A DNA stretch of 44,495 nucleotides from an uncultured Candidatus Saccharibacteria bacterium (GTDB lineage Bacteria > Patescibacteriota > Minisyncoccia > Phycocordibacterales > Phycocordibacteraceae). The stretch is taken from the NCBI GenBank assembly GCA_964371445.1, contig CAYJLK010000004.1:1-44495 (forward strand). Direction: 5' to 3'. How positions within the stretch are numbered: the stretch's first letter is position 1; each line of letters starts with the position of its first letter. The notes below the pieces were generated by a model. That model was not told the DNA's origin, searched no databases, and saw only the letters and a list, made by a program, of their open reading frames with translations. Shown here in pieces: positions 10,695 through 11,479 of this stretch. The translations under genes and the position numbers were made by a program.

Positions 10695-11479
10695 CGATTA
10701 TTCCCCTGTTTCCAGGAGCTCAGACTATATCTTCATCCTTCCCTCGAGGGTTAGGACGATGGCATCTTAGCCATAGGAGCAGTCATTCTCTGATATGGAA
10801 TGATTCCTCAACCTATGACTCCGCGCATCTTTCAGCGCAAGTCGTTACGGGGTCAAACCAAGTATCTGATGCAGCTCTTCTTTTGTCTTCCGTTTCTTGC
10901 TCATGTAGTTTTCATTCTGTATGAGCAGGAGCAGGTCGACGATTTTTCGTATATCCTTCGACTTCATCGTGCGGAGCGTTTGCTTTTCAAGCACCATGCA
11001 CGCCTGAATAAGCAATTTCGCCTGTTTCTTTTTGAAGCGAAGATACGGCAGAAGCATCTCAACCGTTCCTCGCACTTGCGAGAAGCCGTTGATGCGCAAT
11101 TCCGTCATACCATCGTTCCTTTTAGAAACGTAGCCGCATTTGAGCCGCGTTCGAATCCATGAGAGCGGCGCATCGTGGCGACTGTCTTGATAAAGACATA
11201 TCGTCGCCATAAAACGTATTCCCTTGGTCGAATCTGCGCGCTTCTTCAGCTGGAGCATGAGACTTCCGTCTCCGTCCAAGAAGCCCGCGATATACGCGAG
11301 ATCTGCATCGGTATTTGATCGACTTCCCACGGTATTACCATAGTAGCATTCTGGTCCTCAAGCAAGTCTGTTATCCACTGGACCGTCGGATAACGAACTC
11401 TAAGACCAGACGCACCGTAGGCTTCACCGTTATAAGCCATATTGTCATCAGAGATCTCTCTCTGAAGTAGCAATTCTTT
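10695..11479 (-). mobile_element. Group I intron (785 nt) after 23S U2656 in the sarcin-ricin loop; IA-like, with homing endonuclease
   Basis: Exons rejoin as CCCUAGU|ACGAGAGGAC. 5' exon ends in U and intron ends in G. P1 is UAGU|AA with UUGCUA (U.G at the splice site). Core elements: UUAUAACGGUGAA, AAUACCGUG, CCCGUAACGACU, AAGAUAUAGUC, with extra stems between P7 and P3'. Confidence 0.92.
10845..11330 (-). CDS. Single-motif LAGLIDADG homing endonuclease (intron-encoded)
   Basis: YIAGFLDGDGS motif, 161 aa, LLPYLRFKKKQA segment typical of the I-CreI-like family. GTG start. Confidence 0.93.
   Translation of the reverse strand: MGSRSNTDADLAYIAGFLDGDGSLMLQLKKRADSTKGIRFMATICLYQDSRHDAPLSWIRTRLKCGYVSKRNDGMTELRINGFSQVRGTVEMLLPYLRFKKKQAKLLIQACMVLEKQTLRTMKSKDIRKIVDLLLLIQNENYMSKKRKTKEELHQILGLTP

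Follow-up and report, generated by a model that had tools for sequence, protein, structure and literature searches.

The rRNA genes of the window (the whole analysed stretch of DNA, 44,495 nucleotides) were located with Rfam, and all of them lie on the minus strand. The features of the rRNA region and of the insertion described here are as follows:

14870..11949, minus strand, 23S rRNA (Rfam)
10695..11479, minus strand, group I intron of 785 nt at 23S position L2656 (blastn, exon/intron reading)
10845..11330, minus strand, LAGLIDADG homing endonuclease gene of 161 aa with a GTG start and one motif, in the P6 loop (ORF and Pfam)
10379..10266, minus strand, 5S rRNA (Rfam)
10234..10160, tRNA, called tRNA-Met by ARAGORN (Rfam and ARAGORN)
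891..1, minus strand, 16S rRNA, 5′ part only (Rfam)

The 23S numbering follows the E. coli 23S gene (L001:1070-3973), which was compared with the window using blastn. E. coli positions 1600–1931, 1932–2592 and 2657–2782 correspond to window positions 13157..12834, 12642..11982 and 10694..10569, respectively, and the 3′ third of the 23S gene of the window contains three insertions. The L2593 site is already occupied by an intron lacking an ORF. Positions 2654–2665 of the E. coli 23S rRNA read AGTACGAGAGGA; together with the blastn map, this places the insertion studied here between U2656 and A2657. The 5′ exon of the window ends with ...CCCUAGU, the intron starts with AAAGAAUUGCUAC and the 3′ exon starts with ACGAGAGGACC, the split being AGU/ACGAGAGG. 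Intron position p equals window position 11480 − p. A preliminary description of this DNA had proposed a 785-nt group I intron at 10695–11479, splitting the sarcin-ricin loop at L2656 as AGU/ACGAGAGG. The coordinates, the length and the split were all found to be exact, the element lying on the minus strand, and the location in the sarcin-ricin loop at L2656 was confirmed by the blastn map, E. coli positions 2654–2665 and the junctions.

The endonuclease gene

The stretch 11330..10845 is the only long ORF on the rRNA strand within the insertion. Its product matches Pfam LAGLIDADG_1 in one stretch, residues 14–105, with a score of 38.8 bits, above the cut-off of 23.1 (E 1.9e-9), and the alignment of relatives contains a single LAGLIDADG motif. 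The closest relatives with a solved structure are I-CvuI (E 6.6e-17), I-MsoI and I-CreI. An AlphaFold2 model based on 27 relatives had a mean pLDDT of 89.2, and a Foldseek search with this model gave a TM of 0.86 to I-CvuI (5a74) and of 0.80–0.83 to I-CreI and I-MsoI (0.82 for I-CreI). Residues D21, Q48 and K100 are invariant in 27/27 aligned relatives and align with D, Q and K of an I-CreI-derived chain; we take the catalytic residues of I-CreI to be D20, Q47 and K98. The model shows an I-CreI-like fold, and the catalytic residues are conserved. D20N and Q47E are named in two PDB titles among the structural matches.

The dN/dS values for 66 pairs of the 12 closest genes range from 0.07 to 0.21, with a median of 0.13. 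The endonuclease gene is intact and under purifying selection.

Related loci and their hosts

A search with the endonuclease protein yielded 2769 matches at E ≤ 0.001 among 2779 candidates. Where the source gave organism names among the 120 protein matches listed, all of them were CPR. A locus scan with one genome per species found at least 598 pattern matches, at least 513 of which encode a relative, and the best 80 loci were used further. In all 80 of these best loci, the endonuclease lies directly upstream of the same 3′ exon, which is present from its first base. The presence of the same gene at the same junction in 80/80 best related loci is more than chance. Both intron ends were resolved with simple junction rules in 78 of the 81 sequences (80 loci and the window), while L037, L047 and L078 failed the 5′ pattern and were excluded from the 78-intron set. 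The junctions TAGT/intron and G/ACGAGAGGACC are exact in every resolved intron. The resolved introns are 724–975 nt long, with genes encoding 155–173 aa.

According to their titles, the hosts of the best 80 loci are all Patescibacteria with the exception of L059 (‘proteobacterium’); in the host rRNA tree, L059 forms a pair with a Yanofskybacteria record (100*). The window belongs to a 10-row clade of this tree (99*) together with Kaiserbacteria and Paceibacterota records, and hence its rRNA groups with Kaiserbacteria-type genomes. Six records titled ‘Saccharibacteria’ are scattered among Paceibacteria-type lineages (6 changes in 6 rows); one of them, L030, has a Zambryskibacteria record as its sister (100*). 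The ‘Saccharibacteria’ titles of these six records are probably unreliable. In a survey of CPR rRNA genes (Tsurumaki, Sato, Saito and Kanai 2024, J Bacteriol; PMC11270868), Saccharibacteria are described as being without such introns; given the scatter of the six records in the host tree, their titles were set aside as a contradiction of that statement. No match to the endonuclease protein was found among phages with tblastn, and no match to the intron was found among plasmids with blastn.

Comparative structure of the ribozyme

The Rfam model Intron_gpI (RF00028) matched 10820..10702, 119 nt at the 3′ end, with 27.6 bits and E 6.5e-5 in a search of 821 nt. This alignment takes in P8, AAGAUAUAGUC and P9, and the string of J8/7 and P7, AAGAUAUAGUCUG, is matched as well. 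The score lies below the Rfam gathering score of 50, probably due to the 486-nt gene in P6 and to extra helices, and for this reason the attribution of a full core rests on the comparison of 78 homologous introns. The non-coding parts of these introns were aligned together with 30 nt of each gene end, and the structure was proposed by hand. As covariation controls, 200 column shuffles were made and the partners were slid by +1, +2 and −1; the percentage of paired positions and the number of double-change cells were taken as measures. The structural elements, all on the minus strand, are as follows:

11468..11483, minus strand, P1, exon UAGU (11483..11480) and intron AA with UUGCUA (11473..11468); exon UAGU and intron A1-A2/7-12; from sequence reading
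11449..11464, minus strand, P2 hairpin with the GNRA loop GAGA; intron 16-21/26-31; 99.6% paired, 172 double-change cells (shuffle maximum 59)
11436..11440, minus strand, P3 5′ strand AUGGC, partner 10763..10759; intron 40-44/717-721; 70 double-change cells (shuffle maximum 33)
11425..11429, minus strand, putative P4 5′ strand CGGUG, partner UACCG at 11334..11330; intron 51-55/146-150; invariant
11338..11421, minus strand, P5 (11421..11418 with 11342..11338) and its extension including P5a; intron 59-62/138-142 plus extension; covariation
11384..11380, minus strand, terminal loop GGUCC of the P5 extension; GGUCC in 53/78 introns
11319..11328, minus strand, putative P6 5′ strand GGG-AA-GUCGA, partner 10856..10849 (UUGACCCC); intron 152-161/624-631; near-invariant
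10840..10844, minus strand, putative P7 5′ strand CGACU, partner AGUC(U)G at 10726..10721; intron 636-640/754-759; four pairs invariant in 78/78
10839..10822, minus strand, P7.1; intron 641-658; 140 double-change cells (shuffle maximum 64)
10820..10769, minus strand, P7.2; intron 660-711; 119 double-change cells (shuffle maximum 42)
10759..10763, minus strand, P3 3′ strand GCCAU; covariation with the 5′ strand
10734..10758, minus strand, P8 hairpin; intron 722-746; 95.4% paired, 59 double-change cells (shuffle maximum 25); P8 of the Rfam model
10703..10718, minus strand, P9 hairpin with the GNRA loop GAAA; intron 762-777; 100% paired, 56 double-change cells (shuffle maximum 18)
10695..10695, minus strand, terminal G (omega G); intron 785; G in 78/78 resolved introns

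Helices P2, P3, P5, P7.1, P7.2, P8 and P9 exceeded all 200 shuffles in both measures and also the three slid controls. For example, pair 41/294 of P3 is UA in 44 introns, CG in 29 and UG in 5, pair 42/293 is GC in 68, UA in 9 and AU in 1, and pair 59/142 of P5 is UA in 56 and CG in 19. P5a is weakly supported, lying above the shuffles only narrowly (17 double-change cells, at most 12 in the shuffles). Loops L2 and L9 are of the GNRA type in all 78 introns. The string TGCTAC occurs within the first 45 nt in 77/78 introns, and some relatives have an extra hairpin in the P1 loop.

The strands of P4, P6 and P7 are sequence-invariant and follow one another in the expected order, with a single alternating pair in P6. 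Such invariance gives no covariation information for or against pairing. These three helices were assigned, as candidates, by their order and by likeness to the group I consensus, their strands resembling the classic P, Q, R and S elements. P4 can pair in 73–77 of the 78 introns, the remainder being gaps due to the way the segments were cut, bar one U-U at the fifth pair. The predicted pairing of P6, without covariation, is present in 73/73 non-gap rows, and its sole alternating pair, 160/199, is GU in 67 and AU in 6. Pairing of the guide region with the 3′ exon (P10) is weak, about 1 bp by eye.

Several other pairings were considered. A helix proposed by RNAalifold between intron positions 52–59 and the last codons, a rival for part of P4, was rejected as clashing with P4 and because base 59 covaries in the Watson–Crick manner with base 142, whereas its combinations with base 196 are UG 45, CG 18, UA 11 and CA 3, the G being mostly kept whatever the base at 59. 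The GGUCC loop (96–100) and an internal GGACC (123–127) display no compensatory change, and their pairing overlaps the weakly covarying P5a. In the 3′ part, AUGGC/GCCAU and AGAU/GUCU could each form a local hairpin, but these were replaced by the long-range P3 and P7.

P7.1 and P7.2 (10769..10839) are additional helices that follow P7 and precede the 3′ strand of P3. Subgroup IA was reportedly defined by Michel and Westhof in 1990, with extra P7.1 and P7.2 helices between P7 and P3′, and we take two helices in this place to be the mark of the subgroup. The intron has two covarying helices there, at 10839..10822 and 10820..10769.

The preliminary description had also attributed to the element a U.G pair in P1, a terminal G, a full core and an intact LAGLIDADG ORF, and all four attributions were borne out. 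The U of UAGU stands opposite G, with TAGT ahead of the intron in 78/78 introns; window base 10695 is G, as is the corresponding base of all 78 introns; P2–P9 are in place in the comparative analysis of the 78 homologous introns; and the ORF of 161 aa scores above the LAGLIDADG_1 cut-off.

Gene ends within the ribozyme core

The endonuclease gene begins and ends inside the core. P4 is closed by the G of the GUG start codon, codons 1–4 (GUG GGA AGU CGA) and the last codons (UUG ACC CCG) provide the 5′ and the 3′ strand of P6, respectively, and the UAA stop codon is located in J6/7, immediately 5′ of P7. The strings GTGGGAAGTC and TTGACCCCGTAA are each present in 77/78 introns, across CPR lineages. 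This overlap accounts for the invariance of both protein ends among the relatives, and it suggests that folding and translation may be mutually exclusive.

A further proposal, tentative and rather doubtful in our estimation, is that gene and ribozyme act as an interlocked switch, complemented by a loop–exon pairing in place of P10. Positions +7..+11 of the 3′ exon read GGACC and could form base pairs with the GGUCC loop of the P5 extension; this pairing would take the place of the weak P10 and keep the 3′ strand of the sarcin-ricin loop in position up to ligation. If the proposal is true, the start codon would be masked in an intron folded for splicing, a ribosome on the gene would unfold the catalytic core, and making the enzyme and repairing the sarcin-ricin loop would exclude each other.

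Proposed splicing and homing

The element is best explained as a member of a family of group I introns at L2656 of CPR/Patescibacteria, which is spliced from the 23S rRNA and encodes a homing endonuclease; we assign this reading a probability of about 0.85. It is carried by the position, the junctions, the conserved structure, the intact gene under selection and the constant association of this gene with the site. The intron would be transcribed as part of the pre-23S rRNA, fold and remove itself by two guanosine-initiated transesterifications, rejoining AGU to ACGAGAGGACC and restoring the sarcin-ricin loop. The endonuclease, being of the I-CreI/I-MsoI/I-CvuI type, presumably acts as a homodimer. 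It would cut intron-less copies of this rDNA site with a 4-nt stagger, no more than a few bases away from the insertion point, and the intron would then spread when the break is repaired from an intron-bearing copy (homing). Removal of CPR rRNA insertions from transcripts is mentioned, with reference to Brown et al., in the introduction of PMC11270868.

Mobility and vertical descent

Host rRNA identity and endonuclease identity to the window rise together, with a Spearman coefficient of 0.49 over the 52 loci having more than 500 host columns. This correlation agrees with another view of the element, in which it is an old, immobile resident inherited vertically, and the LAGLIDADG protein is kept as a maturase or in another role beneficial to the host, and not for homing. 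Host and endonuclease trees were built for those 52 of the 78 rows that have 600 host columns or more. In the endonuclease tree, a starred clade unites nine of the ten members of the window’s host clade (99*) and leaves L020 outside, and the AU test did not reject a grouping of all ten in this tree (p 0.26). The locking of the gene ends into the ribozyme core also speaks for this view, and homing endonucleases may have maturase activity according to the introduction of PMC11270868.

Against this view, L020 is an outlier, with a host rRNA 95.7% identical to that of the window, ribozyme parts 80.8% identical and an endonuclease only 61.9% identical; the nucleotide identity falls to 42–58% over intron positions 300–600. 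The reverse pattern was found for L070 compared with L048 and L079, where the endonucleases are 84% identical and the hosts 79%. Both cases suggest gene exchange or horizontal transfer, as judged from sequence identities. Horizontal transfer among proteins of the same site is reported in PMC11270868 as well. Moreover, the D, Q and K residues aligned with those of I-CreI are invariant in 27/27 relatives and would be superfluous for a pure maturase. We regard an element without homing as improbable. Regarding the proposed spliced intron with a homing endonuclease, its mobility is plausible, and mostly vertical descent fits the data equally well.

Target site

Exon positions −4..+11 are invariant among the 78 hosts and position −5 is 96% conserved, whereas in the upstream arm the conservation varies from 50% to 94% per column over positions −12..−6. 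Of the seven positions −12..−6, four have another base in E. coli than in the window. Universality is confined to the downstream half-site, the upstream half being variable. The preliminary description had centred the recognition site of the nuclease on GTAC and had foreseen a potentially very broad target range; the variable upstream arm, and hosts that by title are all Patescibacteria apart from L059, weaken the case for such breadth. The site of the host itself, being split by the intron, should be immune. A scan for pseudo-palindromes over 26 centres gave 6/9 arm matches for AGTA, 5/9 for TACG, 5/9 for GAGA and 3/9 for GTAC, where about 2.25 matches are expected by chance and no centre is significant after 26 trials. 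GTAC is not the best pseudo-palindromic centre.

The enzyme might instead cut another rDNA site, for instance an intron-less L2593. The best solved relatives are I-CvuI, I-MsoI and I-CreI, which we take to be L2593 enzymes. In addition, when seven co-resident endonucleases from 15 extra LAGLIDADG reading frames were compared with the L2656 protein, the closest were putative L2593 genes, those of L028 (E 2.5e-22) and L075 (E 1.4e-16). In these two loci, the second endonuclease lies between exon stretches ending near E. coli 2592–2593 and resuming at 2657, and it can be read as an L2593 gene. L028 and L075 therefore appear to hold a distinct gene for L2593 beside the L2656 one, the two being separate lineages with 28–33% identity, which makes L2593 an unlikely target of the L2656 enzyme. 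The location at L2656 in all of the best 80 loci and the ORF-less intron already filling the L2593 site of the window also speak against cleavage elsewhere, which we regard as very improbable.

Significance

A single cut in the sarcin-ricin loop inactivates ribosomes. The supposition that the insertion is not spliced at all, but is excised without ligation as an RNase III-type intervening sequence or resides in a dead 23S copy, is very improbable: some bacterial 23S insertions are indeed removed without ligation (PMC11270868), but with a break at this position the sarcin-ricin loop would be in two pieces, exon positions −4..+11 are intact and without variation in all 78 sequences, the ribozyme core is maintained through compensatory changes, and CPR genomes usually have one 23S gene according to the same source.

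The sarcin-ricin loop is required by the translation GTPase factors, and hence every ribosome here depends on exact intron removal. The element represents a natural test of the risk that a selfish element can put on an essential RNA. Since the L2656 site is published and common in CPR genomes (PMC11270868), the value of the present case is in the details, namely the comparative structure, the subgroup-IA-like layout, the overlapping gene ends and the universal downstream half-target. The predicted endonuclease would be an interesting specificity case for meganuclease biochemistry.

Comparison with known systems

The phage T4 td intron presumably belongs to subgroup IA and carries its gene in the P6 loop. 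Like the L2656 intron, td has P7.1 and P7.2 in the stretch from P7 to P3′, a gene located in the P6 region and a gene start buried in RNA structure. The likeness lies in the layout, and no phage record matches the endonuclease in tblastn.

I-CreI, I-MsoI and I-CvuI are, we assume, encoded by green-algal chloroplast 23S introns at site L2593. The window enzyme resembles them in fold (TM 0.80–0.86), in having one motif and about 160 aa, in the D/Q/K residues and in its location inside a 23S group I intron. In contrast to them, it has a bacterial host, and its sequence is 21–29% identical to theirs. The intron of the window lies 63 nt further downstream in the rRNA than L2593, and thus the target sequence differs from that of the I-CreI group.

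The closest counterpart is found in the CPR survey mentioned above. Position 1952 of its list of insertion sites presumably corresponds to L1951. As the list in PMC11270868 gives 1952 for that site, a one-base difference in convention is likely, and ‘2657’ of this list can be read as L2656. This work describes 14 hot spots in 348 CPR 23S genes, with LAGLIDADG_1 predominating at 1917, 1931, 1952, 2593, 2604 and 2657 (23IS6–8 and 23IS12–14) and with 23IS14 counted among the group I intron sites. The novelty of an L2656 intron, which the preliminary description had left to be checked, does not hold, since the site is already in the survey as 2657/23IS14 and at least 80 public genomes carry the element. 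A search of the literature for introns at L2656, 2656 or 2657 and for group I introns in the sarcin-ricin loop found only PMC11270868. In PMC3984707, ‘2657’ refers to a page and not to an insertion site.

The element of the window and 23IS14, as the latter is described in PMC11270868, share a CPR host, a 23S position within one base (E. coli ~2657), a group-I-like insertion and a single-domain LAGLIDADG_1 protein, and no difference between them was found, the identity of the position following from the reading of the convention above. I-ShaI, encoded at 23IS7, is the only CPR rRNA-intron endonuclease assayed in this work; it cuts its own insertion site and forms dimers. The L2656 enzyme is likewise a single-domain LAGLIDADG_1 protein in a CPR 23S group-I-like insertion, but it belongs to another site and another protein lineage than I-ShaI and is known from its sequence and a model. 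The element is already known as a class, of which the window contains one of many copies. The sections of PMC11270868 considered here present 23IS14 without a secondary structure, a subgroup or a gene–ribozyme overlap, and what is added here is the comparative structure, the overlap of gene and ribozyme, and caution regarding the centre of the target.

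Organisation of the rRNA genes and further insertions in the 23S gene

The rRNA genes of the window (1-891 and 10160-14870, minus strand) are unlinked and their order is unusual. On the minus strand, 23S, 5S and tRNA-Met are followed by about 9 kb of protein-sized reading frames of the same orientation and then by the 5′ end of the 16S gene. Besides the L2656 intron, a group I intron with a LAGLIDADG gene located in the sarcin-ricin loop, the 23S gene contains two other insertions (sites are numbered after E. coli 23S) and one expansion.

11543-11981, minus strand: third insertion, site L2593, 439 nt, ORF-less
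12645-12833, minus strand: second insertion, site L1931, 189 nt
14596-14648, minus strand: 53-nt expansion near 23S model position 229 (2 nt in the Rfam consensus)

Both insertions are preceded by U and end with G. The L2593 insertion is separated from the L2656 intron by only 63 nt of exon; its Rfam group I score is 19.4 bits (E 0.12) and its fold z-score is −9.65. The L1931 insertion is flanked by CCTAAGGT before the 189 nt and AGCGTAATTCC after them. It contains no ORF and has no match in Rfam, and the string AAGAUAUGGUCC inside it resembles a J8/7-P7 element. As a group I intron it would be very small.

Intron sequence matching a strand of the sarcin-ricin loop

Two short elements of the L2656 intron match or complement its 3′ exon; counts refer to the 78 relatives with both intron ends resolved.

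11353-11359 (intron 121-127), minus strand: GAGGACC, invariant in 76 of 78
11380-11384, minus strand: terminal loop GGUCC, present in 53 of 78

GAGGACC is identical to positions +5 to +11 of the 3′ exon, where the sarcin-ricin loop has its 3′ strand, and the GGUCC loop is complementary to GGACC both within the intron and in the 3′ exon. This sequence identity and complementarity may be due to chance.

Related loci and their hosts

The host rRNA and ribozyme of the related locus L020 resemble those of the window's close kin, but the 3′ half of its endonuclease gene (intron positions ~300-600) shows an identity of only 42-58%; either this part of the gene was replaced or it diverged fast. Additional LAGLIDADG genes were found in the 23S genes of ten loci (L017, L023, L026, L028, L033, L053, L062, L065, L069 and L075), approximately at sites L1917-1923, L1931, L1951 and L2593. 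The motif GYVDGEGCF is common to the L1951 genes.

The L2656 intron also occurs in six records titled “uncultured Candidatus Saccharibacteria” (L017, L030, L045, L057, L062 and L066), although a survey of CPR 23S rRNA genes describes the Saccharibacteria as almost devoid of introns (Tsurumaki et al. 2024, PMC11270868). In the host rRNA tree, these loci are dispersed over Paceibacteria-type lineages, a placement that makes their titles look unreliable. Loci L081 and L049 show greater divergence and may be genuine Saccharibacteria.
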